A program made the translations under genes and the position numbers. Under the pieces are notes generated by a model, which saw only the letters and a list, made by a program, of their open reading frames with translations, was not told the DNA's origin and searched no databases. Positions 24,409 to 52,045 of a stretch of 64,000 nt of DNA are shown in pieces. Every line of letters begins with the position of its first letter. The stretch's first letter is position 1. The DNA is taken from IMG/VR virus record IMGVR_UViG_3300017963_000231, positions 22,829-86,828 of that record; one strand, given 5' to 3'. Source of the DNA: a virus.

Positions 24409-24957
24409 ATGGGTGACGGGAAGGGAGGCGGCGCTGGCGGTGGAGGTACTGCGGCGGCAGTTGGCGGGAAAGAGGGACTCCGGGAACTGGATCAGGTTCT
24501 TCGAGGGGCGGAATCTTATTCAGGGACGATCTTGGCCGAGCAGGAAAGTCAGTATTTAGGTGGTTTCGGTCCGGTCCGGCGGTCAGGTCCGGCTCCTTGG
24601 GATCGGTTTAATTTCAGGTCTCAACCGAACGGCAATTTGGGCGGGATCCGGAGAAATGACCGGATTGTGATCACGGGCCAGGGTTTCGGCAGTAGGAGGG
24701 ATCCGCCAAGTCGATGGGTAACCGGTCCGGCTCGTGTCACTTCGGTTCGAGGGCGTGGGGATGGTCGAACGGTGACGGTTTCACCTATCGGGAATTGGTC
24801 TCGCCATCGGTCGATTACCCTGAATACGGCTCCTGCCAGGGCTCCGGGGCAGAGATTTACCACTTCTCCCCAATCGAGTGAGGTCAGGACTAGTCCAAAT
24901 ACTCCGGCTCGAAGGAGAGGGGTGACGGTGATGACGGTAACGGGGAGGGCTGAGTGA
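24409..24957 (+). CDS. MGD-(Gly)n family protein 5, Arg-rich
   Basis: RBS GAGGAGG; MGDGKGGGAGGGGTAA; GTGA overlap with TerL. Confidence 0.8.
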   Translation: MGDGKGGGAGGGGTAAAVGGKEGLRELDQVLRGAESYSGTILAEQESQYLGGFGPVRRSGPAPWDRFNFRSQPNGNLGGIRRNDRIVITGQGFGSRRDPPSRWVTGPARVTSVRGRGDGRTVTVSPIGNWSRHRSITLNTAPARAPGQRFTTSPQSSEVRTSPNTPARRRGVTVMTVTGRAE

Positions 24958-26744
24958 GTTTATCCAGTGAGGAGCAAGAACTTTTACGCCAGATTGTGGA
25001 GGAGTTCGACGATCACGGTGAGAGTTCTACGCTCGAACTCCTGCTTGGGATGGATTTTGATTACATCCTTCCCGATATGGAGACGTTCCTTCTTGACCCT
25101 TATTACATGGGACAGACCGGAAAATCCATATACCCAAAGCTCCTGGATGATTTAATTGAAATCTTTGAGGACGGCCCATTCATTGAGATCCATCTGACTG
25201 GAGGCATTGGATGGGGAAAGAGCACGATTGCTGAATTTATCATGGCTCGGATGATTGCGGAGTGCTGGGTTTATAAAGATCCGGCTACTGCATTCGGGCT
25301 CATGCCAGGGTCTACGATCTCATTTATGAATATTTCCGTGAGTGAGGGCCAAGCCCGGAGGGTCATTTTCAAGGGGTTATACCAAAAACTTACCAGATCT
25401 CCCTTTTTTCAGGAGTGTTGTCGTCCGGATCCGAAAGTTGTGACGGAACTTCGGTTCCCCAAGAATCTTTGGATGGCTCCTTTGGCTTCGACGGATAATT
25501 CTGCTTTAGGACTCGATATTTGGGGCGGGATCATGGATGAGGCCAATTTTATGGCCGTGGTGGAGAAATCCAAAGCCGCCGGACGGGGGAATAAGCGGTT
25601 TGATCTTGCGGAGAACATCTATTATACCATCCAGCGACGGATGAAGTCTCGATTTATGGAGGCTGGCACTATTCCAGGGAAGCTCGTGATTGTTTCATCC
25701 AAGAATTATCCCAATACTTTCATGGAAAGGCGGATGAAGGAGGTAAGGGATATGGAGGAACAGGGGGTTTTTATACGTGATTATGCCACTTGGGAGCCCA
25801 AACCTTCGAGAATTTATTGTGGGGATACTTTCCCAGTGGAAGTTGGAGATGTGGCCAATGTTTCTCGTATTTTGACCCTGGAGCAAGCGGAAAAGGCCCA
25901 TGGAAAGGTTATTGATGTACCAGTGGAGTTCCGGAAAGACTTCGAGAAGGATATCGATCAGGCTATTCGGGATTTGGCTGGGGTTGCGACGGCTACAATT
26001 AACCCATATTTCAAGGATTTTCGGAAGATTACTACTGCGATTGACTCTCGGAGACATCCATTTACGGCTGAAAGCACTAATTTGCAGGATGGGGCGGGGT
26101 TTATTCAAGATTCGCTTGTGGAAATGGACCCAAGAACCAAGAAAACTATCCCTCGAATATCCCCGACTGAGCCCCGATGGGTGCATGTGGACCCGTCTTT
26201 GTCAGGGGATGCTACGGGAATTGCGATGGGGCATGTGGCCGGTCTTGTGGAGATCGAGAGGAAAGATGACGATACGGAGCGGTGGACTATTGAAGAGGCT
26301 CCGTTGATTTGCATTGATTTTATGCTCCGGGTTGTCCCACCGGTTGGCGGTGAGATTCAGTTTCGGAATGTGAGGCAGTTGGTTTATTCTCTTACTGAGA
26401 TGGGTTTTTTGATCAAGGGGGTATCGGCTGATAGTTATCAATCAGCGGAATCAATGCAACATTACCAGTATCGAGGATATCAGACGGCTCGATTTAGCGT
26501 AGAGCGTGAGGATGCCTATAAATTGCTCAAGGATGCGTTTTACGAAGGTCGGGTGAAGATGTATGAATATCCACCGGTGATCGGTGAATTAAGGCAGTTG
26601 GAGTTTGATAAATCTTCGGGTAAAATTGATCACCCGGCTGGCGGGACAAAGGATGTTTCTGATGCCGTTTGCGGTGTGGTGGTGGGATTGATGAGGTATA
26701 TGGTCGTGAAAAGTAAAACTAACTTTGGGGTACAGGTGTTTTGA
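24954..26744 (+). CDS. terL: Terminase large subunit
   Basis: GGIGWGKS Walker A, IMDE Walker B, HVDPSLSGDATG and DHP..G.KDVSDA nuclease motifs. Confidence 0.92.
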   Translation: MSLSSEEQELLRQIVEEFDDHGESSTLELLLGMDFDYILPDMETFLLDPYYMGQTGKSIYPKLLDDLIEIFEDGPFIEIHLTGGIGWGKSTIAEFIMARMIAECWVYKDPATAFGLMPGSTISFMNISVSEGQARRVIFKGLYQKLTRSPFFQECCRPDPKVVTELRFPKNLWMAPLASTDNSALGLDIWGGIMDEANFMAVVEKSKAAGRGNKRFDLAENIYYTIQRRMKSRFMEAGTIPGKLVIVSSKNYPNTFMERRMKEVRDMEEQGVFIRDYATWEPKPSRIYCGDTFPVEVGDVANVSRILTLEQAEKAHGKVIDVPVEFRKDFEKDIDQAIRDLAGVATATINPYFKDFRKITTAIDSRRHPFTAESTNLQDGAGFIQDSLVEMDPRTKKTIPRISPTEPRWVHVDPSLSGDATGIAMGHVAGLVEIERKDDDTERWTIEEAPLICIDFMLRVVPPVGGEIQFRNVRQLVYSLTEMGFLIKGVSADSYQSAESMQHYQYRGYQTARFSVEREDAYKLLKDAFYEGRVKMYEYPPVIGELRQLEFDKSSGKIDHPAGGTKDVSDAVCGVVVGLMRYMVVKSKTNFGVQVF

Positions 26745-29267: not shown

Positions 29268-29281
29268 ATTTGGGGGTCAAT

Positions 29282-32200
29282 ATGGAGCTTGATAAATCCT
29301 TTGAATTCGGGTTAACGGTTTGTAAGGCCCGGAGGGATGAAGAGGGCCGGATGATTGTTACGGGTTATGGTTCTGATACCATGACTGATGGGCATAAAGA
29401 GAAGTTTGATACTCACGCCATTAAGGGAATGCTGGATGCAGTTCGGAACGGCGTTCCTCTCATGACTTCACACAAGGATTCGTTTGGGTTTGGAGAATCG
29501 TTCGATGGTCGGATTGTTCCCCTGGATAGCGGGGAGGTCGGGCTTGAGGTTGATTTTCTTTTGAAAGAGAAGTACCCGCAAGCGACGGATCTTTTTGAGG
29601 CTATTCAAAGCGGAAAGTGTGATCAGCAACTTTCCGTTGGCGGGAAATTGAATATGTCCAATCCTCGGGCCGCTTACCTTCTTAGGGACGGTACTAAGGT
29701 ACTTCATGATTTTGATTTGGATCATTTTTGCACGACTCGGCCTAAAAAGGCGGCGAATCCTCGAACTCATTTTAAGGCCGCAATGTTTGAATCCCTGGAA
29801 AAGGATGGGATGACCGATGAGGTCTGGAAAACATTGGAGGTAGATGATTCTGAGGCTGAAAGGCTGGCTCAGGTGGGGGGAAGCATCGAGAAATTTCTGA
29901 TGCTCAGTCCTTCCATGGATTCGCCTATGACGGGGAGTGTTAATCGGGAAGATGATCCGCTTGGCGGTAATGACAGGTCTTTTGAGGATTTGCCGTCGTT
30001 TAAGCAAATGCGTGATGCTGGGTACAATGCTTACCACGTTCCGCTTTATTGGGAGGGTCATCCCGTTCAACTGGCGATGCGTGATGTTCGGATGGATCGG
30101 AAAAAGTGCTTGGAGAATGTCGGGCGGTATAAATTCGATGAGATTGAACCGATGGTACGAGCCAGTGGGGTAAAAAACCCGGTGGTAGATAGTAAAGGGA
30201 TGATTTCTCTTTACGGCGATTATAGTAATGTCGGGAATATGGATGATCGACCGGTCGGTAAAGATCCTACGGGAAAACGGGCCGTTCGGTATTATCGAAT
30301 GTTCCCGTCGGCAATAAACAATGACGGTGAACTGGAATATGATGATCTTGGGCGACTGAAAGGTGGCGGATTCTTGTTCATGAAGGATGGGCGAAAAGTC
30401 CCCGGTGAGGATGATTACTCCCCCTTCTGGAGAGTTCCTTCCATGACGGAAGCACAAGTCTTGATCCCGGATGCCGTGGCCAAATTGGCGGAAACCACTG
30501 AAAAGTCTGATCTTGAGGATACGGTGGAGAAGAGCATTAATCTTACCCGAACTTTGCTTATGCCCTTGTCCCTGCGGAAAATCAAGCTCAGGACTAAACC
30601 CACGGATGACCATTCTCATGAGTTGAGGCTTTTCCTTGATTCCTCTGGCAAGGTAGTTGACGGATATACCTTTGACGGCGGATCATCCTTTGCTCATGGC
30701 CGGAGGGCTCAGGCTACTCAGGATATGAATGACCGTGAATCGTTCCGGCTTCGCCATGACCACGTTCATATCGTAGTGTTTACGGGAGGCAAGGCCGTTC
30801 TTGCCGAAGCCTTGGGGCATACTCATGAGTACGAGTTGCCTGAAATGGAAAAGGAGACAAGCGAAATGGAGTTTCACAAAGAGAAGGTACGGCATAGGAC
30901 CGTGAATAGCGGCGGCTACTTTGCCGTGGGCGAGAAGGGCATTGGAGCGGAGGTCTATGAGGAAGCTCCTAAATCCGCTGATCTTACTCAGACGGGTCAA
31001 AGTTCCTATGCACTTCTCTTGGAGAGTGAACACGGACAGCACATTCGCCAGCTTGGGAAGATTTCCAGGGCAGAGGCTCAGAAGATGGCTCTTGGGGCCG
31101 TCAAGCCTGAAGGTGGGAAAGTGGTAGTTGGTCGGTCGATTGGCCGTCTCAATAATCGCAATCTCTACCGGATGCTTTCAGAGTTCTCTCCGGCGGACGG
31201 GAAAGAGGAGGCTGAAAAGGCGGTGCCTTTCCGGTCTTACCCACTTTCGGGTAACCGGCGGTGGTCTTTTACGGCGAATGAAGGGAATGCGATTCTCAAT
31301 CAGTTCGGCGGTGAGGATTCAGAAAGAGCGTGGAAGGCTTACGAGAATGCTCATGCGTGGTACAACTCGGATGCTGGTAATGGTACTCCTCGAACTAAGG
31401 GAGCCTATGCTTTGCCTCATCACAAGCTGGAAGATGGTTCTATGCGAACCTTCCCCGGCGGTGTGATTGCGGCTATGGCGGCTTTGAATGGTGCGAGAGG
31501 CGGTGTTACTCGCATTCCGGCGAATGAGAGGCAAGGGGTTTATAACCATCTTTCTCAGCACTATCGTCAAATGGATATGACTCCCCCGGATTTGCGGGGA
31601 GCCAAGGAAGGTTATAAGGAAGATATCGGGGTTGGCGAGACTGACTCTGAGTATCTGGATCAATTCATCAATTTCCATAAGGAGCAAGGAGTAGATCTTG
31701 ATTGGCTTCCTGCTTTTATGGATGAGTTTTCAAAAAGTGAAGAGGAGGTAGACAAGATGGGCGGTGAGGAAAAGAAAAAGGATGAGACCACTGCTCCTCC
31801 CGTAGAGGAGACTGCGGTGGACGAAACTACGGATGATAAGGAAACTGAGGCTCCGAAAGAGGAAGCCAAGCAAGAGGAAACCGTGGAAACCAAGACTGAT
31901 ACCGGACTTCTGGAGAAGTTTATGGTGGGTCTTGGGCTGAAAAAGGCTCCCAATCCGAAGGTTGAGCGCACACTGACTCTGATGGAATCGGCTCAAGATG
32001 CTCTTGAGGGCGTGGAAATCGGGGAAGATGATGCCGCTCCCTTGATCGGACAAATGGCCAAGCTCGTTTCCATGGTCAAGGCCGGGGTAGAGGCGGGAAA
32101 GATCGACCTGGATGATCTTCCTGCTCGCGATGCTCGGTTGCTCAAGGCGTTCCTGGATGGGAATCCGGTGGAGGCTCCGAAAGAGGCTCCGAAACCTACT

Positions 32201-32653
32201 CCCAAAGAAGAGGAGCCCGAAGAAACCGATGAGAAAGCGGAATCTGCGGAGATCGATTACGATAAATTGGCCGATAAATTGGCTGAGAAGTTCGATCTCA
32301 AGCCGAAAGAAGCGGGTGAGGATGCCGGTGATGCTCCCAAGGAAGAGGAAGCTCCCGAGGATTCTCAAGATGAGGATAAAGAGGAGGAGACGGATACCAA
32401 AGAGAAGTCCGCTCCGGAAGATACTGGAACAGTTGAGAAATCTGAGCAGGACGATGCTCTTGCCCAAATACTCAACGGTCTCAATGATCTTTCGAGCCGG
32501 ATTGAGAAGGTTGAGAATGTCTCCGGTGTGAGCAAGTCTTTGGACGGCCAGGAAGGTGGCAAAAAGAAACCCGGTAAGGGTATCTTCTCAGGAGCCATCC
32601 CCCACGTTCACAAGGCTCGCCAGATTCAGGAAGCCAAAAAGCAGGGCAAGTAA
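29282..32653 (+). CDS. Multidomain prohead protease / scaffold protein
   Basis: N-terminal HK97-type protease motifs (H, QLSVGG, PAN-like AANP); acidic C-terminal scaffold; between portal and capsid. Confidence 0.82.
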   Translation: MELDKSFEFGLTVCKARRDEEGRMIVTGYGSDTMTDGHKEKFDTHAIKGMLDAVRNGVPLMTSHKDSFGFGESFDGRIVPLDSGEVGLEVDFLLKEKYPQATDLFEAIQSGKCDQQLSVGGKLNMSNPRAAYLLRDGTKVLHDFDLDHFCTTRPKKAANPRTHFKAAMFESLEKDGMTDEVWKTLEVDDSEAERLAQVGGSIEKFLMLSPSMDSPMTGSVNREDDPLGGNDRSFEDLPSFKQMRDAGYNAYHVPLYWEGHPVQLAMRDVRMDRKKCLENVGRYKFDEIEPMVRASGVKNPVVDSKGMISLYGDYSNVGNMDDRPVGKDPTGKRAVRYYRMFPSAINNDGELEYDDLGRLKGGGFLFMKDGRKVPGEDDYSPFWRVPSMTEAQVLIPDAVAKLAETTEKSDLEDTVEKSINLTRTLLMPLSLRKIKLRTKPTDDHSHELRLFLDSSGKVVDGYTFDGGSSFAHGRRAQATQDMNDRESFRLRHDHVHIVVFTGGKAVLAEALGHTHEYELPEMEKETSEMEFHKEKVRHRTVNSGGYFAVGEKGIGAEVYEEAPKSADLTQTGQSSYALLLESEHGQHIRQLGKISRAEAQKMALGAVKPEGGKVVVGRSIGRLNNRNLYRMLSEFSPADGKEEAEKAVPFRSYPLSGNRRWSFTANEGNAILNQFGGEDSERAWKAYENAHAWYNSDAGNGTPRTKGAYALPHHKLEDGSMRTFPGGVIAAMAALNGARGGVTRIPANERQGVYNHLSQHYRQMDMTPPDLRGAKEGYKEDIGVGETDSEYLDQFINFHKEQGVDLDWLPAFMDEFSKSEEEVDKMGGEEKKKDETTAPPVEETAVDETTDDKETEAPKEEAKQEETVETKTDTGLLEKFMVGLGLKKAPNPKVERTLTLMESAQDALEGVEIGEDDAAPLIGQMAKLVSMVKAGVEAGKIDLDDLPARDARLLKAFLDGNPVEAPKEAPKPTPKEEEPEETDEKAESAEIDYDKLADKLAEKFDLKPKEAGEDAGDAPKEEEAPEDSQDEDKEEETDTKEKSAPEDTGTVEKSEQDDALAQILNGLNDLSSRIEKVENVSGVSKSLDGQEGGKKKPGKGIFSGAIPHVHKARQIQEAKKQGK

Positions 32654-32684: not shown

Positions 32685-33986
32685 ATGTCGATTAACGAAG
32701 AACTCATTGAAAAAACTCTTGAAAGCGGCGATTTTTTTGCCGGTGGGGAGATTAACCCTACTCAGCAAGCGGAATTCGTTCGGCTGGTCAAGGATTTTTC
32801 GGTAATGTTGAGCATGGTCCGTTTTGTGGATATGCCGACTAAACGTTATCTCATTGACAAGATCCATCTTGGGGAGCCCATCACGCGGGGTATTGCGGAG
32901 AATACCAATGCGATGACCAACCTGATTTCCCCGAAGATGAATCAGATCGAGCTTACCACGAGCAAGATCAAGACTGCTTATGCCATCACCACTGAGGCCC
33001 TTCAGGTTGCCCTTAATCAGGAGGATCTTGAGGATACTGTGCTGGAAATGGTGACTAAGCGGTATTCAACTGACGTGGAGATTCTCGCCATTTCGGGCGA
33101 TGACACCGTGACCGGTACTACTCCTTACGATGAACTGATCAAGGTTCTCGATGGATGGGACAAGATCACTGATGACGCTCAGGTGGTGGATGCCGCTGGC
33201 GCAACCATTTCCAAGGCGGTGTTCACTGAGGCTCTGCGGACCATGCCTCAGCAATATCTCCAGGATCCTGATCTTCGGTTCCTGATGTCCAGGATGACCA
33301 ATATCGATTGGATGGATGAGATTGCGGATCGGGAAACGTCCTTGGGTGATGCGGCTTACCGGGGTGACGCGGCTGGTATGATGGGTGTTCCGGCTTCCAT
33401 CGTTCCTCTGATCCCCTCGAACAAGCCCGTTGCCGTGGCGGCGGCTACTCCAGCTATCGTGGTCGGCGCTCAGTATGGTCCTTTTGAGATTGTCACTGGA
33501 TCGAATGATCTGATCAACCTGGATATCGACAATGCCGGTGCCCACGAAGTTACCCTGACTCAAGGGGTGTGGGAGGCTATCCGGATTGCGGCCCAACTCA
33601 ACGCGGATGCTACTTTTGCGGCTAATGGCCTTGTGGCTTCTGACAATGATGGGCGGCTTCAACTGGCCTCTTCGACTACGGGTGCGACTTCGGAGATTGA
33701 TATCCAGGCGACTTCAACTCCGGGACAGTCGGCTTATGCCGCGCTCGGTTTGACCATTGCCGCTACTACGGGTGCCGCCGCTGGTTCGGGTTCTCTTAAT
33801 GAGGGAACTCTCATTTGGCTGGCCAACCCGATGAACTTCATCTTCGGGATGCTGGATTCGACTCGCGTATTCTCCGAGTTCAACAAGGATTATGATCGTG
33901 TTGAGGTCGTGATGTATAACGAGGTTGCGGTACAAGTGGAAAATCTGGAATCCATCGTGAAGGTCACGAATATCGCCCGCAAGTAA
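32685..33986 (+). CDS. Major capsid protein
   Basis: GEINPTQQAEFVRLV...DVEILAISGD pattern; strong RBS; position. Confidence 0.88.
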   Translation: MSINEELIEKTLESGDFFAGGEINPTQQAEFVRLVKDFSVMLSMVRFVDMPTKRYLIDKIHLGEPITRGIAENTNAMTNLISPKMNQIELTTSKIKTAYAITTEALQVALNQEDLEDTVLEMVTKRYSTDVEILAISGDDTVTGTTPYDELIKVLDGWDKITDDAQVVDAAGATISKAVFTEALRTMPQQYLQDPDLRFLMSRMTNIDWMDEIADRETSLGDAAYRGDAAGMMGVPASIVPLIPSNKPVAVAAATPAIVVGAQYGPFEIVTGSNDLINLDIDNAGAHEVTLTQGVWEAIRIAAQLNADATFAANGLVASDNDGRLQLASSTTGATSEIDIQATSTPGQSAYAALGLTIAATTGAAAGSGSLNEGTLIWLANPMNFIFGMLDSTRVFSEFNKDYDRVEVVMYNEVAVQVENLESIVKVTNIARK

Positions 33987-36179: not shown

Positions 36180-37883
36180 ATGGAAGGCTTTTTCAATTAC
36201 ATAGTGATCGAGGACGGGGTTCCAGTAGCCATTGGTTCCGGTGGTGGGTCTGGCGGAATTGAGTTCCGCGATGAAGGTATCAGCCAAGGCTCGGCGGCGA
36301 TTATGAATGTTGTGGGTGCCGGAGCCGGGGTTAGTATTTCAGGTGGTGTTGCTACTCTTAATGTGGGTGGTGCCTCTGGAACTATTGAAGTGCAGAATGA
36401 TGGGGTTAAAGACGGCGATGCCTCCATTCTTGACTTTATTGGAAATGGTGTCAAAACGGCGTTTGCCGCTGGGAAATCTTCATTGGAGTTTCCGGAAATC
36501 CCGTTGGATGTTTTGATGGTTCATCCTAGTTTTACGGATGATAATGATTTGCAACAATATTCGACCGTGGAGGCGGCGATAACCCGAGCTAAGGCTATTA
36601 GGAATCCAGGATCGAGAGAGGTTTTGATTTGGGTTCGAACGGCTATTTATCAGCCTACTGCAAGATGGGATTTACATGATGGCTATGGGATGGTGTTCGA
36701 TCCTATGGTGTCTTTTGATTTTTCGTCCTGGGCCGGGGGCACTACTTTTATCCAGTTTGCGGGGAACACGACTCTTAAGGGAGTGGATTTAACTTACGGA
36801 GCGATTGGTTCTCATCCATTTACTGGAGGAAATCATGTTGAGTGCCTAAGGGCTGATCCCGTAACGGGAAGCCCTACAATTGGATGGCTGGAAAATACTT
36901 GGATATGGGATACTCAGGGAGGAGCTACTTATGGAATTCGGCTTACTTCCGGGGGCGGTTCATTGCCCTTTACTCCCGTATTAGTGGCGCGGAATAACTT
37001 AGTAAGCGTGATTACTTCGGTTGGCGGATTAGTTCAAGAAGGTGATTGGGAGGTGAGGGTTGAAGGAGGAGCCTCAATATTCACTACGGTAGGGGCTTCT
37101 GCCATCAAGCAAGTTGATGTGGGTTCTGATTATCCTGATACTTCCATTAGTATTATGCGGATTCAGGCTTTAGGTGGTGCGGGTGTTTATGATTTTGAGA
37201 AAAGTACCAATGGAACTATCGAGATGAATGGTTCCATTTTAAGGCTTGCGAATACAAATATAAATTGGTTGACTGATATCGCCGGTACTGCTGATGGACC
37301 AATCAACTCAGAGCAAATTCTTCAGTTCGAGTATCCGGATCCTTCTCTTTCCGTTTCTGAGAGGTATTCTCTTAAGTCGGCATTGAATCTGATCGATCAG
37401 GATATTCATGATACTACTCAGGGCCATGATCATGATGGAGTGGGGAGCAAGAGAGTTGATTATGACGATCTAGTAAATCAACCTGAATTCGGAACGGAGT
37501 ATGATAGTGCTGAGGATGATACCGAATCCAATACAACTTCAACTACATTCCAGCAAAAGCTCATTTTGACTACGGGTTCATTGCCCGTAGGAACGTATAG
37601 GATTGGCTATTATTGTGAATTTAAGTCTGACGATGGGGATAATGATGGTGCTGAGGCTCAAGTTGATTTGGATGCAGGGACAATTATAGCGCAAGCGGAT
37701 GTTCAAAATGCACGTCCTTCTTTTTTGGGTACTGCTCAAGGTATGTGGACCGTTTTAGGGGGTGTAAAGGAAGTGACCTTCGGGTCTGCAACTACGCATA
37801 CTATTGAAATAGATTATCGTCAGACGAATTCTAACACTGCAAGGATAAGGCGCGCAAGGATAGAGATCTGGAGGATCAGCTAA
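36180..37883 (+). CDS. Fibre/appendage-like virion protein
   Basis: Gly-rich repeated N-terminal segments, beta-rich body and HDHDG motif. Confidence 0.6.
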   Translation: MEGFFNYIVIEDGVPVAIGSGGGSGGIEFRDEGISQGSAAIMNVVGAGAGVSISGGVATLNVGGASGTIEVQNDGVKDGDASILDFIGNGVKTAFAAGKSSLEFPEIPLDVLMVHPSFTDDNDLQQYSTVEAAITRAKAIRNPGSREVLIWVRTAIYQPTARWDLHDGYGMVFDPMVSFDFSSWAGGTTFIQFAGNTTLKGVDLTYGAIGSHPFTGGNHVECLRADPVTGSPTIGWLENTWIWDTQGGATYGIRLTSGGGSLPFTPVLVARNNLVSVITSVGGLVQEGDWEVRVEGGASIFTTVGASAIKQVDVGSDYPDTSISIMRIQALGGAGVYDFEKSTNGTIEMNGSILRLANTNINWLTDIAGTADGPINSEQILQFEYPDPSLSVSERYSLKSALNLIDQDIHDTTQGHDHDGVGSKRVDYDDLVNQPEFGTEYDSAEDDTESNTTSTTFQQKLILTTGSLPVGTYRIGYYCEFKSDDGDNDGAEAQVDLDAGTIIAQADVQNARPSFLGTAQGMWTVLGGVKEVTFGSATTHTIEIDYRQTNSNTARIRRARIEIWRIS

Positions 37884-39981: not shown

Positions 39982-40435
39982 AAAGTTCGGGCCGTGGGCT
40001 CGATTCACTAATTTCCCTTTGAGGTTGGCGAGGGAGCTTCCGAAGATTGCCGAAATCGGTATTAATCGGGAGGCTCAAGGATTGGCTGATGCCCTTAAAG
40101 CTACCGTTGAAGGGGGTAAGGCCGGTGGTCCTCGTTTGAGTGCCGAGACGGTGGCTCGTAAAGGATCATCCGTCAAACTCGTAGATTCGCATGCTCTGGC
40201 TAATTCATTTACGGTGGAGGGAGTGAAGGCCGGGGGAACGGGTTTTGTGGGGATTAAGGAGGGTACAGGCCATCCGTCGGGGATATCGATGACTGCTTTG
40301 GCGATGATTCATGAATTCGGAACTGCCACAATTCCAGCCAGACCATTTTTGGAGCCCACTTTGAGGAGTGCTGGGCCGAAAATGCTTAACGGCGTAGTGA
40401 AATATTGGCAGAAAGAAGCAAAGAGGGTGTGGTAA
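39965..40435 (+). CDS. Neck / tail-completion protein
   Basis: IHEFGTATIPARPFL motif. Confidence 0.8.
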   Translation: MGVTIKKFGPWARFTNFPLRLARELPKIAEIGINREAQGLADALKATVEGGKAGGPRLSAETVARKGSSVKLVDSHALANSFTVEGVKAGGTGFVGIKEGTGHPSGISMTALAMIHEFGTATIPARPFLEPTLRSAGPKMLNGVVKYWQKEAKRVW

Positions 40436-41664
40436 TGCCTACTTTCACTTGGAGCCCTGATGATCCTGGCGTGGTCCTGGAAAATATGGCCGTGGTGAAT
40501 GGGAAGGCTCGCCTTCTGGCTCAAACGCCGGATGGAGAATATGATTTTCCTGAGCTTAATCCAGACGCTAGTTATCTTCCGATTGGGACCATTGAAATGC
40601 GGAATTTAACTTGGGGTAATATCCAAGATTTCCCTTGGGGCTCGGAGATGGAGTATTCTCAGCCTAATGGATCGACCATTAGGGTGTATTTCTCGATTGA
40701 TGGAGGAGCCACTTATCCTGGGTCTACCACAAGTATCGATACTCTTTATCAATTTTTCTTGGGGTCATTCGAGATGTCGAATCAGTTGAGGTTGAAAGTA
40801 GAGATTACGCCTTCGACTGATGGGAAGGAGACTCCGGAAATCGGACGTATTTTTATGTACGGGGATGCGGAGTACGATGTAGTAGAGGATGCGGTACGGA
40901 CGTTGAGTAAAGTTATCAAAGAAAACGCCAATCCTTATATTCAGTGGTATTTTGCACATACTGGAGGAAGTTCGTTTACGCTTTTGTCTCGATTTGATCC
41001 GACGAATTTGGGCGTTTTTGATGCGAATCGAATGGGAGCGACTCAGAATCTAGTTTCGAGTTATGATCCGGGGACGGGTCTTGTTACGCTTACAACTTCG
41101 GTCCCGGCTGGAACGGAGCTTTTGGTAAGAGGAAGGTTGGCATGGGCCTCAGATATCCAAGAAGAGGGGAAACTTCGAGTGATGGTGAGGCCGGAGCCTG
41201 ATTATGTTAAGTCTCATGCTCCAATGTATGTGATTCGGCATTTGAATAGCTCGAATTATGGGGACGGGGCATTGGCCGGGGATGAGGAGGAGAAGCGGTT
41301 CGGGGTTGGGGAGTTGGCCGGAAGGTTGATTGAGAGGCCGACTCCGGTGGATTTGGTCATTGCCGTCGATTGCGTAGCCTCTCGGGAACAGGAGGCTTAT
41401 GCGATGGCAAGGCAAGTCAGGGATCTTTTCATGCGTGATGATGTGGAGGGTCTCTGGCAGTCTCTCGGGATGGGTTATTACTTTGATATTGTGAACGTGG
41501 TGCCGATTACGGACGTATCCATTCCAGAAGATGAAATCCATGATTTTCAAGTTCGGGCGGTGTTTGGGGGCAAAGAATATCCGTCAACTATTCGTGAAGC
41601 TCCCTTGGCCGAAACAATACAAATTGATGTCAATAACGATGAATTAGTGGAGGTGGAAGGATGA
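40435..41664 (+). CDS. Putative tail terminator with N-terminal extension
   Basis: Position before the sheath; C-terminal pattern typical of terminators. Confidence 0.5.
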   Translation: MPTFTWSPDDPGVVLENMAVVNGKARLLAQTPDGEYDFPELNPDASYLPIGTIEMRNLTWGNIQDFPWGSEMEYSQPNGSTIRVYFSIDGGATYPGSTTSIDTLYQFFLGSFEMSNQLRLKVEITPSTDGKETPEIGRIFMYGDAEYDVVEDAVRTLSKVIKENANPYIQWYFAHTGGSSFTLLSRFDPTNLGVFDANRMGATQNLVSSYDPGTGLVTLTTSVPAGTELLVRGRLAWASDIQEEGKLRVMVRPEPDYVKSHAPMYVIRHLNSSNYGDGALAGDEEEKRFGVGELAGRLIERPTPVDLVIAVDCVASREQEAYAMARQVRDLFMRDDVEGLWQSLGMGYYFDIVNVVPITDVSIPEDEIHDFQVRAVFGGKEYPSTIREAPLAETIQIDVNNDELVEVEG

Positions 41665-45574: not shown

Positions 45575-48500
45575 ATGGCATTCGGCGGCGGTGGAATGGC
45601 TGGATCGGTCGGTCTTGGGTTTGTGATGAGCCTGAAAGACAATGTGACCGGCCCGGCTATGAAAATCCACAAGTCAGTTCTTGCGCTTCAAACGGGTCTA
45701 TCGAGACTGTCCATGGGGTTCGGCCTTCTCGGAGGTGCGATGGCCGGGATGGGCGGTGGAATTGCAATGGGGTTAGCCGGAGGTGTCAAAGCGGCTACGC
45801 GATTTGAAGGGACATTGAAAACTATCCAAGGAATCACGGGGGCGGCATTTGACGATAAGCAATTGGATGCTTTAGGGAGTAGGATTGACCAGATTACATC
45901 TACTCTTCCGATGTCCTCTCAGCAAATGGCAGACGCGATGCAACAAGCCGCTCAACAAGGTCTTGTGTTTGGTAAGACCGGAGAAGAGGCGGCAAAGACT
46001 CTTGAGAGGATCGGTTTTGAGGCCGCTCAGTTATCGGCTATTACGGGAGATATGACGGCGGCAGAAGCTCTTGGCGGAATGGGTGCGACTCTCAAGCAGT
46101 TCAATTTGGATATCTCGGAAAATGCCGGGGCCTTGTCGGATTCGATGGTCATGGTGCGAAATTCAACTAGGGCCACCGTTCCCTGGCTCATGGAAGTCAA
46201 TTCACGGGCGGCGGGTACTGCCAAGACGTTTGGATTGACGGCGGCTGAATTCCAAGGAGTTTCCGGTGTGGTTGCGGACGTTGTGAAGCAACCGCAAGGT
46301 GCCGCGTCCGGTTTGACTATGATTTTCAACTCGATACTCAAGAAATCGGGGAAATTCGCCAAGCTGATGGGGATGGATGTCAAGAGTTTCCAGGCCGCGA
46401 TGATGGAGGAAGGTGGTCCATCGGCAATGTTCCAGGGCATTGTAGGACAACTCAGTAAACTGGATAAATTCCAAAAGGCGGCGATATTTAAGGAACTCGG
46501 GATTGGCGGTCGATTCGCGACTCGGGTAATGAACTCTCTTATCGCGGCGAATGATAAGATGATTGACGGGCAAACTAACCTATCGCTCGTTATTGGTCAG
46601 GCGAATGCGGCATGGTTGGCCGGGATGAGGCGGGGAAATAATCCCAATGCGTTTTATGAGAGGATGAGCAAAACTGCGGGGGCTCTTTTTGCGACTTTCC
46701 AAGGTAACATCGAGAACATCAAAAAGCAGTTGGGAAAAGAACTACTTGTGGCAGTGAAGCCTCTACTGAATGCTTTGATTGGGATTCAGACGGCATTTCT
46801 CGCGATTGAACCCGCTCAGAAGAGGCTTCTTGTGGTTATACTCGGGATTGTCTCTGCGATTCTGACTCTTTCCGGGATGTTGACATTGGTAATTGCGGGA
46901 TTCATGATGTTTGGGACGGTGCTTATTCCGGCGCTTCTTGTGGCGATTCCATTGGTTTTGGGAGTTGCGGCGGCAATCGGAGCAGTAGTCGGAGCACTGT
47001 ACGTGTTCAAAGGTGAAGGGAAATCGGCATTTCAGTTCCTCGGAGATGGTTTCAATTCTTTGATGCTCGGGGCATCTGATTTTATTGGCGGTTTCATTAA
47101 TGCGTGGCGTGGAATGGGAAAGGCTTTTATGGGTCCATGGAAAGAGGCCGGGAGTGCGATATCGAGTGTGATCAATGAGCTTCTTTATACGTTGGGCATT
47201 ACTGGAGAATGGGGTGATACTCTTAAAGACCTTGGGACTATTCTCGGTATAAAAGTAGGGAATGCCATAAAAAGGATAGGGCAAAAATTCAATAAATTTG
47301 TTCAAAAATGGTATCCCTTTATGACGGGATTTGTGTCGAGGATGGAGAAAGCCCGGAAGCCGATTAAGGCTATTGGGATGGCGCTTTTTGATATTTTTGA
47401 GGCTATCGGAAGTCTTGGAAAGCGTGTCCTCGAATTCTTTGGTCTTTGGTCTGATGATGGGCAAGATGCAATGGGTGACATTGCGGGAGGTATTGCCAAA
47501 GGCGAAGCGGCGGCAGATAGGTTCGTTGCTTCTTTGGAGAAGATTGCCGGACGGCTTGAAAAAATAGATGAAAAAATAGATGCAATTGATGTTGAAGGAG
47601 TTTTTAAGGGTGCCGAAGAGGGATTTAAGAAAGGCATTGAACCGTTACGGAAGTTATCCGTCGGGCTTGAAGGGGTGTTCTCTAGTTTGAGTAGGTCGAT
47701 TCAGAGAATCGGGACTCTTTTGGATACGGATATAGGTAAAGGCGTTACGGTAATGGATGGCTTAAACGCCGTGACTTTTGCATTGAATGTGCAATTCGGA
47801 TTGATGGCTCTTGCTTTGAATCAGGTCGCTTTAGCGATTGAGTTGATCGTTATCCATTTGACTTCTATGGGTCAGATTGTGAAAGGAGCGGCTCAATTAT
47901 GGTGGGCGGTTTTTGGTACTGCTTTACCCGCATCCCTACATATTCTGGCTTTAACGGTAAAGCAGATATTTAACAATATTTTAGGGACAGTGGGATCTAT
48001 TTTGCAGGAAGTTGGCGGATTAATTAATAAATTTACGAGTGACCATCCGAAGTTGGCTAAGATGCTTGGGGTTGATCCAAGTGTGGGACAAGGACTTGTT
48101 CTTTGGGGAGAAAGTCTACAAGAAGGTGCAATGGATACGGAGGGGACGGAAAAGAAAATTGCCGCGCTTAAGAAGGAAATCACAGGGGCTTTCGATCCGG
48201 CGATAGAGAGTTTCAAGGAAGCCGGGAAATCCCATCAGTACATGGGGGATGCGTTTAACGATTGGTCTAAGAGAACGGCAGATATTTTGGGGATGAAAGA
48301 ACATAAACCACCTATGGATAAGGTGCCAGGACGGGGAGAATTATTTGGTCCTCCGGCCCCTGCTCCGATGGTGGAGCCTCCTGGATTTGCTAATCTTATG
48401 GATTTCTACAAAGATGCGATGGCCCCGCCAGGGCAAGTTTCCGGTGGGATAAGTGCTGATATGTCGGGAGAGGCGTTGAAATCAGCAATCGCGGCAGTGA

Positions 48501-48667
48501 CCGTCGAACCGGAGGTGGATAATACGGTTAATTTGACAACAACTCAGAATTTCACCGTGCCGATTACTGCCCATCTTCCCGGCGTGGCAGATGCAATTAA
48601 GGGTATGGCCAAGGCAAATAATGTGAGTAAGCGTGAGCAAGTTACTCAGAGTTCGGAGGGGAGCTAA
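45575..48667 (+). CDS. Tape measure protein
   Basis: 1030 aa, Ala/Gly-rich helical with hydrophobic segments; position. Confidence 0.92.
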   Translation: MAFGGGGMAGSVGLGFVMSLKDNVTGPAMKIHKSVLALQTGLSRLSMGFGLLGGAMAGMGGGIAMGLAGGVKAATRFEGTLKTIQGITGAAFDDKQLDALGSRIDQITSTLPMSSQQMADAMQQAAQQGLVFGKTGEEAAKTLERIGFEAAQLSAITGDMTAAEALGGMGATLKQFNLDISENAGALSDSMVMVRNSTRATVPWLMEVNSRAAGTAKTFGLTAAEFQGVSGVVADVVKQPQGAASGLTMIFNSILKKSGKFAKLMGMDVKSFQAAMMEEGGPSAMFQGIVGQLSKLDKFQKAAIFKELGIGGRFATRVMNSLIAANDKMIDGQTNLSLVIGQANAAWLAGMRRGNNPNAFYERMSKTAGALFATFQGNIENIKKQLGKELLVAVKPLLNALIGIQTAFLAIEPAQKRLLVVILGIVSAILTLSGMLTLVIAGFMMFGTVLIPALLVAIPLVLGVAAAIGAVVGALYVFKGEGKSAFQFLGDGFNSLMLGASDFIGGFINAWRGMGKAFMGPWKEAGSAISSVINELLYTLGITGEWGDTLKDLGTILGIKVGNAIKRIGQKFNKFVQKWYPFMTGFVSRMEKARKPIKAIGMALFDIFEAIGSLGKRVLEFFGLWSDDGQDAMGDIAGGIAKGEAAADRFVASLEKIAGRLEKIDEKIDAIDVEGVFKGAEEGFKKGIEPLRKLSVGLEGVFSSLSRSIQRIGTLLDTDIGKGVTVMDGLNAVTFALNVQFGLMALALNQVALAIELIVIHLTSMGQIVKGAAQLWWAVFGTALPASLHILALTVKQIFNNILGTVGSILQEVGGLINKFTSDHPKLAKMLGVDPSVGQGLVLWGESLQEGAMDTEGTEKKIAALKKEITGAFDPAIESFKEAGKSHQYMGDAFNDWSKRTADILGMKEHKPPMDKVPGRGELFGPPAPAPMVEPPGFANLMDFYKDAMAPPGQVSGGISADMSGEALKSAIAAVTVEPEVDNTVNLTTTQNFTVPITAHLPGVADAIKGMAKANNVSKREQVTQSSEGS

Positions 48668-49167
48668 TGGCTGATGCAGATTGGTGGAACAATCCACTAA
48701 AAATTCGGTTCCTGAATCTTCGGACTCGAACGACTCTGACGGGAATTTATAATCCGGAGACTCTAAGGGTATCGGAGCAAGCTGAGTACGCTGAAATTAA
48801 AATTCCGGGGGGTCCGGATTCGTACTATCAGTGGATTAATGGTGGGGCGATGTCTATTCCCTTGACTCTTTTTTTGAATGAGTACGGAGAGGGCATTCAG
48901 AATAGAAGAGGGTATGTGGATGAGGCAATTACGTTCTTTCGGGATGCCATGTCCCCAAAGCCCGTGACGTATGGGGGGCGAATCGTAAAGACTGCTCCAG
49001 ATGTACTCAGGCTCTTTTGGGGGCAAATGACTTTTGGGGAACCCGCTCCGGGACTCAACGTGATTATTGCCGCGATGGATACTGAAATTGTAATGGCGGA
49101 TAAATTTACGATCAAGCCCGTGAGGGCCTTTGTGGATCTCGAATTAAAGAGATTTACGTTTATCTAG
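48667..49167 (+). CDS. Baseplate tube-initiator-like protein
   Basis: YNPETL...YAEIKIPG...LFWG...PVRA.V.LEL pattern. Confidence 0.7.
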   Translation: MADADWWNNPLKIRFLNLRTRTTLTGIYNPETLRVSEQAEYAEIKIPGGPDSYYQWINGGAMSIPLTLFLNEYGEGIQNRRGYVDEAITFFRDAMSPKPVTYGGRIVKTAPDVLRLFWGQMTFGEPAPGLNVIIAAMDTEIVMADKFTIKPVRAFVDLELKRFTFI

Positions 49168-49177
49168 GAGTGGAATC

Positions 49178-49492
49178 ATGCCGGTTTACACGGGATCAAG
49201 ATATCGACTAAGCCGAGTGATCAAGTTTATTCTTGAGGGAAATCTAACGAAGAGGCTTTTGATTAGGTACAACATGCTCAAATCGAGCGTGTTTGAAAAC
49301 GGGAGAGTGGAATTCCTTGATTATGTGGTACAAGAGGGGGATCGTTTTGATAGTCTGGCGGCTACTTACGCCGGGGATGCGACAAAATGGTGGGTCATCG
49401 CAGAGGTGAACGATTTTGTGGGCTTTCCTTTGGATTTGGAGCCAGGGACTAGATTAAGGATTCCTCCGCAGTCCTATTTCGAGGAGGTATAA
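49178..49492 (+). CDS. LysM / tail X baseplate protein
   Basis: YVVQEGDRFDSLAATYAGD..KWWVIAEVN...LRIP. Confidence 0.85.
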   Translation: MPVYTGSRYRLSRVIKFILEGNLTKRLLIRYNMLKSSVFENGRVEFLDYVVQEGDRFDSLAATYAGDATKWWVIAEVNDFVGFPLDLEPGTRLRIPPQSYFEEV

Positions 49493-49493
49493 G

Positions 49494-50870
49494 ATGGCTT
49501 TATTTCGTGAGCAAGTAGATGATACGGGTGAAAATCCAGAAATGGAAAATTTCAATGCTCTTGGAACGCCGGATGAGGAGTTTACGGTGATTAAGGACGT
49601 GAACTCTCCGATCTGCTTCCTGGACTTGAAATTGGACGGTGAGTGGGTTCCGATGGAAGAAATCGGGATTCGGAGACTCGTGACTGAAGTGGAGATAAAT
49701 GATTGTACTGACTGCAAAAAGAAAGAAGGACAGTTGAATTTTTATGATCCGGACGGGAGTTTGATTGAATCAGAACTTCTTTCTGAGGGCCTTGAACTTC
49801 GGATAGGGATGGGCTTTCTTGGGGATGTCAGGAACTTCGGATCATGGGTTGTCAATGAGGTAAATCCGATTATTGGTCCGACTGACTTTCGGCTTGAAAT
49901 GAAATTGCAGTGCCTTTCGTGTTTTATGGATCGGACGGCTGATCTTGCTCGGTATGAAAATATCACGGCGGGGGAGATTGCCAAGCTAGTTGCGGCTAAA
50001 TATGGTTTGGAACCGAGTGTGGCCGATCCAGGAGATGTCATTCCGGAGTTTTCTCAGGCGTATGAATCGGATTGGTCAGTAATGGATAAGCTGGCTCAGT
50101 CTTATGGGTATCATTGGTATGTAGAGGATGATCAGTTGATTTTTCGTCCTCCAGAATCGAAAACTGCAAATTTTGAACTCAACTTCTGGCCCAAGCCAGT
50201 AGAGGGGCAAAATCCGCGCTCGTTCCGTTTTGGGAATCTGGCTTCGGCCCGGTATTCCTGCAAAAAGGATTCTGAGTGCGGGAAATCCTCTTGAAATCAG
50301 AAGTGTGACTCCCAGGTGGGAGCAAGAATTTTCGCAAAAAGCGATGTGTTGAATGACCCGTTTGTCCGGGCTCAGTATGAGTATTTTTCGGAGAACGGTC
50401 AGGATCCTCTCGGATTAGAGGAGTTCTATGGGTATGTGAATCGGGAGACCGGGGAGAATGTGCCTTTTTCTTACTACATGAACTCCATCGATCTTTCGGC
50501 AGGAGGGGCGGCGATATTCTCTACCCGTCTTACTAGTTCCGAACGGCAGTGTAAAGATGGGTGTGGGATTGACGGTGAGTGTTCTTATGGCATTACTCAT
50601 CTTCAGGCCGGGTTGATGATTCCCGTTCTTGGGATTGGGACCAAATATTCTGGTCTTTACGAGCTTTCCAAAGTGCGTCATCGATATGATAGCAATGGAT
50701 ACCATACGTCGTTCGAGGGTAAATGTATAACGCGGGCCAGGGGTAAAGCGGAGTGTGATCCATGTGATCCATGTTGTGGCCCAAGCTACTCGAATAACAC
50801 GCGGTCACAACGGACAGGCCAAAAGTGGAGGACTTCTAAGTTGAGTGTGGATCAGGAGGTCGATGGATGA
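49494..50870 (+). CDS. Baseplate hub (gpD/gp27-like) interrupted by an in-frame TGA at 50292-50294
   Basis: QAYESDWSVMDKLAQSYG in the first half, G.KYSGLYELSKVRH..D.NGY.T.F in the second; both ORFs are in the same frame. Confidence 0.8.
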
Positions 50871-52045
50871 GAATTTATACTGGAGAGAAGGTCAGATACG
50901 TAGGAAAGTATCGAGGCTTTGTTACAAATATCGAGGATCCAGATCAGCAATTCAGGATTAAGGCTATTGTTCCGCAAGTGTTGGGAGAGGTAGAATGTAA
51001 TTGGGCATTGCCGATGCTCCCCGGAGGGCAGAATGATCCAAAGTTACCTGAATTAGATGAGATGGTCTGGATCGAATTCGAGGATGGAGACCCGAATTTC
51101 CCGACGTGGCGAGGGGGGTTTCCGAGTACGGCTCAAGGAGAGAAACCCGTGCCGAGTGAGGCAAGGGGCGAAGATGGGGATACGGTTCTTCCGCCGAGAG
51201 GAACATCTACCAGAACGCTCGCAGATGGAACGGAGCTTGCGGAACCGGCAGTAGCCTATGCAGGGGCCTATGGTGTTGAATCTCGCAAGACTCGGGGCGG
51301 TCAAAGGATCGAGATTGATCCAACTCCGGATGCTCGTAGAATGGCCGTCATGAACGAAGGCAACAACTTTTCGATGGAGTGTAATGAGCAGGGGTGTTAC
51401 CGGCAGAGGGTAAGCCGGTGTGATACGGTGTGTTCCGGGAGTAACTGCCAGACTAATTGTGGATCGTGCCGGTGTGTGAATTGTGGCCCATGTTACACGG
51501 AAAGCCGGAAAGACTGCAATACCGTTTGTAAGGGCAAATCGGGGTTTACCTATAATGGCGATGTTCGAGTGGTGCTTGGAGGAGGGGAAAACCAAGTAAT
51601 CTGTAACGGAGTTTTGGAGATCACCGGATCAGGGCAGTTGAAGCTATCTCTCGGGAGTGCCGTAGGCCAAGCCGTGGCCGGGAATCTTCAGCACGGGGTT
51701 ATGGGAGCCCAAGAGAATGTCATTCTGGAGAACAAGCAGGAAGTTATCGGGAACGCTTCGGCTCGGGCAATCGGGAAATCCGTAGATGTTTTGACCGGTA
51801 AGTATCAGATGAAAGCCTCAACCAATGAAATGAACATGGATGGACTTGCGGTGAGGTTGGGGGATGAGCTTTTGGCTCTAAGTCCATTGCTCAAAGGAAC
51901 GGAAGTCTTGACTCTTTTGAATGCTTTTATTCAGTGGGCAATGACTCATACCCATCCATCTGATGGGGCTCCGGCTACTCCTCCTTGGACGGGAGGACTT
52001 TTAACGCCGGGAGTGCATACATCAAATAAGGTGTTTACGGAATGA
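50867..52045 (+). CDS. Baseplate spike (gpV/gp5-like), Cys-rich
   Basis: GKYRGFVTNIEDP...RIKA.VP, VWIEFEDGDPNFP and C-terminal HTH (HxH) motif. Confidence 0.9.
   Translation: MRIYTGEKVRYVGKYRGFVTNIEDPDQQFRIKAIVPQVLGEVECNWALPMLPGGQNDPKLPELDEMVWIEFEDGDPNFPTWRGGFPSTAQGEKPVPSEARGEDGDTVLPPRGTSTRTLADGTELAEPAVAYAGAYGVESRKTRGGQRIEIDPTPDARRMAVMNEGNNFSMECNEQGCYRQRVSRCDTVCSGSNCQTNCGSCRCVNCGPCYTESRKDCNTVCKGKSGFTYNGDVRVVLGGGENQVICNGVLEITGSGQLKLSLGSAVGQAVAGNLQHGVMGAQENVILENKQEVIGNASARAIGKSVDVLTGKYQMKASTNEMNMDGLAVRLGDELLALSPLLKGTEVLTLLNAFIQWAMTHTHPSDGAPATPPWTGGLLTPGVHTSNKVFTE

Follow-up and report, generated by a model that had tools for sequence, protein, structure and literature searches.

A Conserved In-Frame UGA and Downstream Hairpin Within the Baseplate Hub Gene of a Tailed-Phage Clade: Candidate Stop-Codon Decoding or a Split Hub

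How is a phage baseplate hub made when its gene is interrupted by a stop codon? The question is raised by the tail locus of an uncultured sediment phage, the IMG/VR virus record IMGVR_UViG_3300017963_000231, which is 86.8 kb long with a CheckV completeness of 67%. The window analysed here is the stretch of 64,000 nucleotides (nt) covering bases 22829-86828 of this record. Its hub gene (49494-50870, plus strand) is split in frame at codon 267 by a TGA. The two open reading frames (ORFs) on either side, 49494-50294 and 50316-50870, share the same frame (offset of 822 nt = 3 x 274), and translation through the stop reads ...SCKKDSECGKSS*NQKCDSQVG.... A first-pass annotation had described exactly this arrangement of two same-frame ORFs parted by one TGA, and the ORF list, the coordinates, and the translation all confirm it. 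It had also taken the two ORFs for the halves of one gpD-like hub and the gene for a possible phage selenoprotein, with a hairpin downstream of the UGA as the insertion signal. The positions of all features are collected in table 1.

The hub protein is a divergent member of the gpD-type family. Its N-terminal part matches PHROG 52 (tail protein) with E = 2e-14. The Pfam profile Phage_GPD remains below its gathering cut-off of 30.1, with 19.1 bits for the N-terminal part and 17.8 bits for the read-through product. In a HMMER search of 1.84 billion representatives, an alignment of the close homologues retrieved 4156 proteins at E <= 0.001. Among the matches listed, lengths are mostly 330-620 residues, and many span both halves in one stretch. 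In the best 150 of these 4156 proteins, as in every solved homologue, the hub is one chain.

At E <= 0.01, the profile of a 63-sequence alignment matched 13 PDB sequences, with similarity to solved hubs over both tube-like domains. The VgrG 9rce_F ranks first (E = 5e-34, profile positions 9-356), and there are further matches to a contractile injection system (CIS) protein of AlgoCIS (7aef_q), to the Anabaena CIS (7b5h), and to the pyocin R2 hub (6u5h_C, E = 2e-22), each of them one chain. The same 63-sequence alignment was used for a structure model, which replaced an earlier model from six sequences that was too poor (predicted local distance difference test, pLDDT, of 48.6). The AlphaFold2 model of the read-through product has a pLDDT of 83.7 and a predicted template modelling score (pTM) of 0.81. 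Foldseek gave 59 matches to it at E <= 0.001, and among the matches listed all are hub, VgrG, or CIS spike-base proteins. The fold matches include 7aef_q (E = 4e-21), Mu gp44 (1wru, template modelling score 0.72 on target), and 6u5h_A (0.73 on target).

Both halves together thus form one baseplate hub fold of the gp27/gpD/Mu-gp44 type, and the two-halves proposal of the first-pass annotation is upheld by the single-chain profile matches to solved hubs and by the fold matches of the read-through model. In profile, fold, and gene order the protein resembles gp27 (T4), gpD (P2), gp44 (Mu), the R2 pyocin hub, and the N-module of VgrG/Afp8/Pvc8. Unlike the gp27, gpD, gp44, and VgrG hubs, the gene is here broken by a conserved UGA, the clade is unusually rich in cysteine, and the Phage_GPD score is below threshold.

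One in-frame stop within a gene that is otherwise uninterrupted is the most frequent mark of an error or a pseudogene. Under this reading, the gene would be broken or an artefact, owing either to a mistake in sequencing or assembly or to a nonsense mutation that recently inactivated it as the phage decays. Against this, contigs from four public runs of three studies (sediment and seawater metagenomes) cover the TGA with no difference at the codon, two of these runs being possibly the source of the record. Within the 401 nt around the TGA, the runs differ at a single position, 50238, where one run has C>T, and the word depth is ~59 and 56 in two runs carrying the TGA. None of the seven runs listed is RNA data. 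The exact 266- and 184-amino-acid (aa) products are documented on 4-5 contigs (the 266-aa product on four).

Among 5.8 billion proteins, six hub homologues were found. Four of them are unbroken (430-465 aa), and the 265-aa homologue P0006 stops at the same column. The contig of P0006, hereafter L002 (Ga0114919_10004442), carries a TGA at the homologous codon, and its frame stays open onward to a full-length hub. The hubs of the window and of L002 share 66.6% protein identity and 65.4% DNA identity, with 10 of the 11 residues after the TGA identical. Conservation of the UGA between lineages is listed as a selenoprotein criterion in the part of PMC1088965 available, and it is observed here between the window and L002. 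The proportion of nonsynonymous differences (pN) is 0.245 in the N-terminal part and 0.23 in the C-terminal part, the proportion of synonymous differences (pS) is saturated at 0.75-0.77, and the overall dN/dS is ~0.06.

These values indicate that both hub parts are under purifying selection, expressed, and needed. Sequencing error and pseudogene are excluded, and the whole reading as a broken gene or an artefact is considered very improbable. The first-pass annotation had kept sequencing error as an alternative and had proposed a check of the codon in sequencing data; the codon, identical in the contigs of all four runs and present as TGA in L002, rules this alternative out. Since only 34 of the 106 long ORFs of the genome are terminated by TGA, it is also mildly informative that L002 has kept TGA and not TAA or TAG.

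The TGA is embedded in a conserved RNA element, whose closing helix takes in the U and the G of the UGA. The stem TG-A-CTCCC-AGGT-GGGAG-CA is located as the first-pass annotation had claimed, with its AGGT loop starting at 50314 after a spacer of 19 nt from the TGA, and ViennaRNA predicts it as a hairpin of -9.0 kcal/mol. This energy is unremarkable in comparison with chance (z = -1.1 to -1.4; 27 of 200 shuffles fold equally well). The thermodynamic z-scores do not discriminate, because the true selenocysteine insertion sequence (SECIS) of fdhF is also weak by this measure and scores merely z = -0.65.

What is unusual is that the TGA and the hairpin are kept nearly base for base at 65% overall DNA identity. 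No stretch of the gene is better conserved in DNA than the 30 nt that begin with the TGA (28/30 identical between the window and L002). The 45 nt before codon 279 are identical at 40 positions, versus 9-35 of 45 at seven other gene junctions of both phages, some of which may be offset by indels. In codons 264-278, the same codon is used at 10 of the 12 sites with identical amino acids versus 42% elsewhere (binomial P = 0.004), and this synonymous freezing ranks at the top of 371 sliding windows. The pS in codons 268-278 is 0.30 versus 0.75. The unbroken outgroup L001 has neither the TGA nor the hairpin, and the hairpin is a novelty of the TGA-bearing clade. A search for the 18-nt hairpin sequence in viral contigs gave no match. 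Taken together, the TGA and the hairpin are a deliberate, selected, and functional feature of a working hub gene.

The function preferred here, at about an even chance, is that the UGA is decoded and one full-length hub is produced. A fraction of the ribosomes would decode the UGA at 50292-50294 rather than terminate, and the product would be a baseplate hub of 458 residues. The stimulator would be the conserved hairpin, which lies 11 nt downstream and would stand just outside the ribosomal mRNA entrance with the UGA in the A site. Within recoding, the decoder rated likeliest would be the host SelB, with selenocysteyl-tRNA (Sec-tRNA) docked on the AGGU loop, and selenocysteine (Sec) would enter a C-x5-C-x4-U-x3-C cluster. 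As a fallback, the UGA may be read by a near-cognate Trp- or Cys-tRNA. Both the passage of the ribosome over the UGA and the inserted residue are inferred.

Several features of the region after the stop are in accordance with decoding. The 11 codons after the TGA are still in frame and resemble the unbroken homologues (P = 0.002 for the 11-mer, versus all k-mers of the genome), and so do the seven codons before the GTG at 50316 (P = 0.014 in the same comparison). The candidate restart ATG of L002 is an ATT in the window. Finally, Cys271 is encoded downstream of the stop and upstream of every possible restart. A known case of this kind is the UGA read-through of the A1 protein of phage Qbeta, in which a low-copy virion protein is also obtained via occasional decoding of UGA. 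In Qbeta, read-through adds to a coat protein that is already complete, and no stimulatory hairpin is known there. Unlike Qbeta, the stop is here in the middle of a fold and the phage is a double-stranded DNA myovirus.

The strongest competitor is a true split of the hub, which is taken as a serious possibility, although one that falls short of an even chance. In this case, translation would stop at the UGA, the C-terminal part would be made separately by coupled re-initiation, and the halves would assemble noncovalently into the hub trimer. The restart would occur in L002-type phages at the AUG 12 codons downstream, behind GGGAG, and in the window at AUU 50328 or GUG 50316. The hairpin would hide the Shine-Dalgarno (SD) sequence, and only ribosomes that had just completed the first part could go on to make the second.

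L002 has GGGAG, then CAAGG (5 nt), then an in-frame ATG, a spacing typical of the starts of the phage itself, which are mostly 5-9 nt from the SD (an SD-like motif scoring >=4 in our own scheme is found for 88 of the 106 ORFs of the window's genome). The ATG is kept in all three L002-type variants, and the C-terminal ORF is annotated from it. In each record, gene callers mark a pair of ORFs (266/265 aa and 184/181 aa), and of the C-terminal products P0012 starts with V and P0008 with M. Codon 267 lies in a low-confidence loop of the model (block mean pLDDT 55), between the strands 249-256 and 269-271, where according to the model a break of the chain should be tolerated. The outgroup residues at the UGA column are ordinary (S, S, V, and G/K, depending on the alignment).

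The RNAalifold consensus of the window and L002 has 13 pairs with no compensatory change and one one-sided change, so that the comparison of these two DNA sequences provides no evidence of covariation. The three differences between them are at unpaired positions or change U-A to U-G. Because such positions are unpaired or G-U tolerant, RNA structure alone could account for most of the sequence conservation. Since the UG of the UGA is itself paired in the closing helix, the pairing alone could hold the TGA in place in a split gene.

On the other hand, the window has ATT in place of the ATG, and its GTG 50316 has no SD; the 16 nt upstream contain no GGAG, GAGG, or AGGA motif, as the first-pass annotation had noticed in reporting no obvious ribosome-binding site there. 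The same annotation had named a ribosome-binding site of the second half as a finding that would speak against a selenoprotein, and here the two phages disagree: L002 has a good SD and ATG, whereas the window has ATT and a GTG without SD. The residues in the column of codon 279 are of an ordinary hydrophobic kind (M, I, M, V, V, and L, the unbroken homologues having M, V, V, and L). Since GGAG occurs 815 times in the 86.8 kb of this G-rich strand, an SD-like motif close to the stop counts for little.

The position of the hairpin also disfavours the split. Its 5' arm begins 14-17 nt past the stop, which is the position of a recoding stimulator. From general footprint sizes, a terminating ribosome would probably not melt it, and the SD would thus stay hidden. 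In a split gene, moreover, an untranslated spacer would have to keep the frame, Cys271, and the likeness to the homologues through RNA constraint alone, in a family where the hub is one chain in the best 150 members and in all solved structures. The arrangement is like that of coupled genes with a hairpin-masked SD in having a stop, GGGAG within 33 nt, the ATG of L002, and an SD paired with CUCCC. It is unlike them because the two ORFs are halves of one fold, the start is not conserved (ATT in the window), and the masking arm is located downstream of the stop and not inside the upstream ORF.

Returning to the decoding of the UGA, the residue inserted has to be considered. The surroundings of the codon are rich in cysteine, as the first-pass annotation had remarked, and the comparison adds that the cluster is specific to the clade with all its cysteines conserved. 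The context is C256-x5-C262-x4-TGA-x3-C271, and the outgroups have S/T/G, S/V, and I/V at these Cys positions. The Cys count of the hub is 16 for the window and 18 for L002, versus 2-5 for the closest unbroken relatives, and every Cys of the window's hub (16/16) is conserved in L002. In accordance with the hub, the spike encoded by the next gene has 14 Cys in the window and 16 in L002 versus 3 in L001. This distribution points to possible metal sites or disulfides within the puncturing device. Many of the hub and spike cysteines (window 49494-52045, L002 4001-6555) are arranged in CxxC-like pairs.

Reading of the UGA as selenocysteine is a tentative proposal, and the selenocysteine reading as a whole is kept as a live minority one. 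The hub of this phage clade would then possibly be a selenoprotein, in which Sec at codon 267 would complete a Cys3-Sec cluster (C256, C262, U267, and C271) in a surface loop of the device that punctures the cell. Ordinary near-cognate read-through of the UGA is rated unlikely.

The prototype for comparison is Sec140 of E. coli fdhF, where the fetched sequence has the UGA, 11 nt, and a 17-nt hairpin (GG-U-UGC-AGGUCU-GCA-CC). The statement of the first-pass annotation that the fdhF loop contains AGGU was correct, as the DNA reads AGGTCT. The minimal SECIS rules of fdhF are a 17-nt element, a spacing of 11 nt, G23 and U24, and a bulged U17. The phage hairpin is like fdhF in its spacing of 11 nt from the UGA, in a one-base bulge at nucleotide 17, and in the GGU of its loop. 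It is unlike fdhF in its upper stem of 5 bp versus 3, in the position of the GU 2 nt further from the UGA, and in having A instead of U as the bulged base.

For the bacterial SECIS (bSECIS), the part of PMC13188914 available gives as consensus a loop of 3-9 nt, a stem of 4-16 bp, a G in the first two loop positions, a distance of 16-37 nt from the UGA, and a minimum free energy <= -7.5 kcal/mol. The phage hairpin agrees with all of these: it has a loop of 4 nt (AGGU) with G at loop position 2, a stem of 5 bp, a distance of 19 nt, and the energy given above. However, the consensus is unspecific as a test, because 153 of 600 random TGA triplets of the genome also pass it as implemented. A stricter filter is passed by 1.3%, but it was defined after the hairpin had been seen. 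The SECIS-like character claimed for the hairpin therefore stands as far as the consensus constraints and the fdhF-like spacing are concerned, and loses force with the share of random triplets that pass.

Other results reduce the probability of selenocysteine further. The Rfam SECIS families (SECIS_2 to SECIS_5) have no match in 50150-50450 at E <= 10, whereas the control fdhF reaches 87.1 bits with SECIS_2 and 35.8 with SECIS_3; these Rfam models are built on few gene families. The standard test for selenoproteins, according to the part of PMC1088965 available, is the presence of Cys homologues at the UGA column, at least two and in more than half of the pairs. No such pairing is found here, because none of the four unbroken homologues (0/4) has Cys at this column. 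The pairing of Cys with UGA was a check named by the first-pass annotation, and S, S, V, and G/K were obtained instead. This outcome is softened, not cured, because the Cys cluster is clade-specific and has no known unbroken clade member. In the 86.8-kb record, at its completeness of 67%, neither a tRNA-Sec nor a SelB wing-3 domain was found, and no search was made for selA or selD.

A hub is a structural protein for which no need of Sec is known. The gene is like bacterial selenoprotein genes in its lineage-conserved in-frame UGA, in a hairpin within the bSECIS constraints, and in the position of the UGA amid cysteines. It is unlike them in having no Cys homologue and no Rfam SECIS match, in encoding a virion structural protein and not a redox enzyme, and in being carried by a phage. 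The selenoprotein proposal of the first-pass annotation is consequently retained in part: the TGA is real and conserved, the hairpin conforms to bSECIS, and the Cys context is genuine, whereas Cys pairing and an Rfam SECIS are missing and the consensus is unspecific.

The literature searched, seen in part, yielded no paper describing a phage selenoprotein. In the part available of a 2026 review of prokaryotic selenoproteomes (PMC13188914), the terms phage, viral, and virus occur 0 times, and a recoding review (PMC8310308), likewise available in part, names only two poxvirus selenoproteins.

Another way of passing the stop would be a ribosome hop, a shortened form of the bypassing in gene 60 of phage T4. 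The peptidyl-tRNA-Ser would leave UCU 50289-91 and re-pair at the in-frame UCC 50310-12, with 18 nt skipped. The UCU directly before the stop, the synonymous Ser codon UCC in frame 18 nt on, and the hairpin nearby are all compatible with this. However, the landing codon is within the 5' arm of the hairpin and not after it, the conserved Cys271 would be skipped, and such bypassing is extremely rare. The hop is thus given very little credence. A +1 or -1 frameshift at the stop was rejected from the sequence alone, since the site lacks a slippery heptamer and its +1 frame is closed within ~20 codons.

A change of the code is the least probable of the explanations weighed, with hardly any probability left to it. 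TGA would then be a sense codon throughout the phage or its host (code 4, code 25, or stop recoding in late genes), and recoding of stop codons is known in some uncultured phages. However, TGA terminates 34 of the 106 long ORFs, the hub gene being one of the genes that end in it, and among the TGA-ending ORFs a long continuation of the same protein is found only after the hub. The sole tRNA of the 86.8-kb record is a tRNA-Gln(UUG) at G000:C1:9372-9445, 13.4 kb before the window. Genome-wide reassignment of TGA according to codes 4 or 25 was rejected, because TGA terminates these ORFs and there is only one convincing in-gene TGA; the rejection would fail if a UGA suppressor tRNA were encoded in the missing third of the genome. 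Hop, artefact, and code change together are left with a small share of the probability.

A second pair of same-frame ORFs parted by a single TGA is located at 462-1907 and 1923-2426, with no Cys context visible. These are probably two ordinary genes.

The hub is located between the tape measure and LysM genes and the gpV spike gene, and the order is identical in L001 and L002. The terminal TGA of the hub gene (50868-50870) overlaps the ATG of the spike. Every long ORF of the window is on the plus strand, and the GC skew, taken per 2 kb, is strongly positive throughout, between +0.11 and +0.33, and does not switch.

Table 1. Features of the hub locus (positions in the window)
Feature	Position	Strand	Remarks
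Tape measure gene	45575-48667	+	Upstream of hub
CIS-tube-like protein gene	48667-49167	+	Between tape measure and LysM gene
LysM protein gene (gpX-like)	49178-49492	+	Upstream neighbour of hub; Pfam LysM 22.1 bits
Hub N-terminal part, codons 1-266	49494-50291	+	From ORF list; 266-aa protein of gene callers
Conserved RNA element	50289-50327	+	Closing helix UCUUG/CAAGR, 3-bp hairpin UCA/UGA, and 5-bp hairpin predicted by RNAalifold
In-frame TGA, codon 267	50292-50294	+	Same codon and column in L002; TCC (Ser) in L001
Hub C-terminal part, codons 268-458 and terminal TGA	50295-50870	+	Unbroken homologues align over C-terminal part
Hairpin UG-A(bulge)-CUCCC-AGGU-GGGAG-CA	50306-50324	+	Starts 11 nt after UGA; identical in L002
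GTG, candidate restart codon	50316-50318	+	Gene-caller start of the window's 184-aa ORF; also in L002
GGGAG, SD-like 3' arm of hairpin	50318-50322	+	5 nt before ATT 50328
ATT	50328-50330	+	ATG in L002-type phages, start of the 181-aa C-terminal ORF
Spike gene (gpV/gp5 OB domain), Cys-rich	50867-52045	+	Downstream neighbour of hub; Pfam Phage_base_V E = 3e-14
Baseplate_J gene	from 53883		Downstream of spike

Elsewhere in the window, a 640-aa protein (12864-14786) contains a CobT C-terminal/VWA domain (E = 5e-26), a cargo of a kind unusual among phages. In the structural region, the ORFs 29270-32653, 36180-37883, 24954-26744, and 40405-41664 (1127, 567, 596, and 419 aa, respectively) have no Pfam match at E <= 0.001.

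The searches for a host and for cultured relatives gave mostly negative results. The hub profile against genome contigs produced 103 pattern matches with no relative among them. The capsid profile against genome contigs found two distant loci (42% and 30% identity), one in a metagenome-assembled genome and one in Candidatus Binatia, too far for a host assignment. In tblastn against cultured phages, the best sheath match has 31.8% identity, with mixed hosts, and the hub has no match. One capsid relative, with 44% identity, bears the label of an Elusimicrobiota metagenome-assembled genome. The major capsid protein (32685-33986) has 47 relatives at E <= 1e-10, including six with 77-83% identity, versus just six for the hub. 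The hub genes of these 77-83% capsid relatives are not among the six hub homologues found. The clade is thus larger than the hub data show, because the capsid protein has many more relatives.

An essential virion gene with a selected internal stop means that this phage relies on a nonstandard translation event for every particle. If selenocysteine is the true reading, virion assembly would be tied to the selA/B/C/D genes and the selenium of the host, and the hub would be the first structural, that is, nonenzymatic, selenoprotein of a bacterial virus. Selenoproteins would then extend to phage structural proteins, which are absent from the available parts of PMC13188914 and PMC8310308.

If the hairpin stimulates ordinary read-through, this would be a type of recoding that, to our knowledge, has no established case in tailed phages. 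If the hub is truly split, the gp27-type fold would tolerate fission inside a domain, with an RNA switch coupling the two halves. Under all three readings, the standard annotation of two unnamed ORFs misleads for the whole clade.

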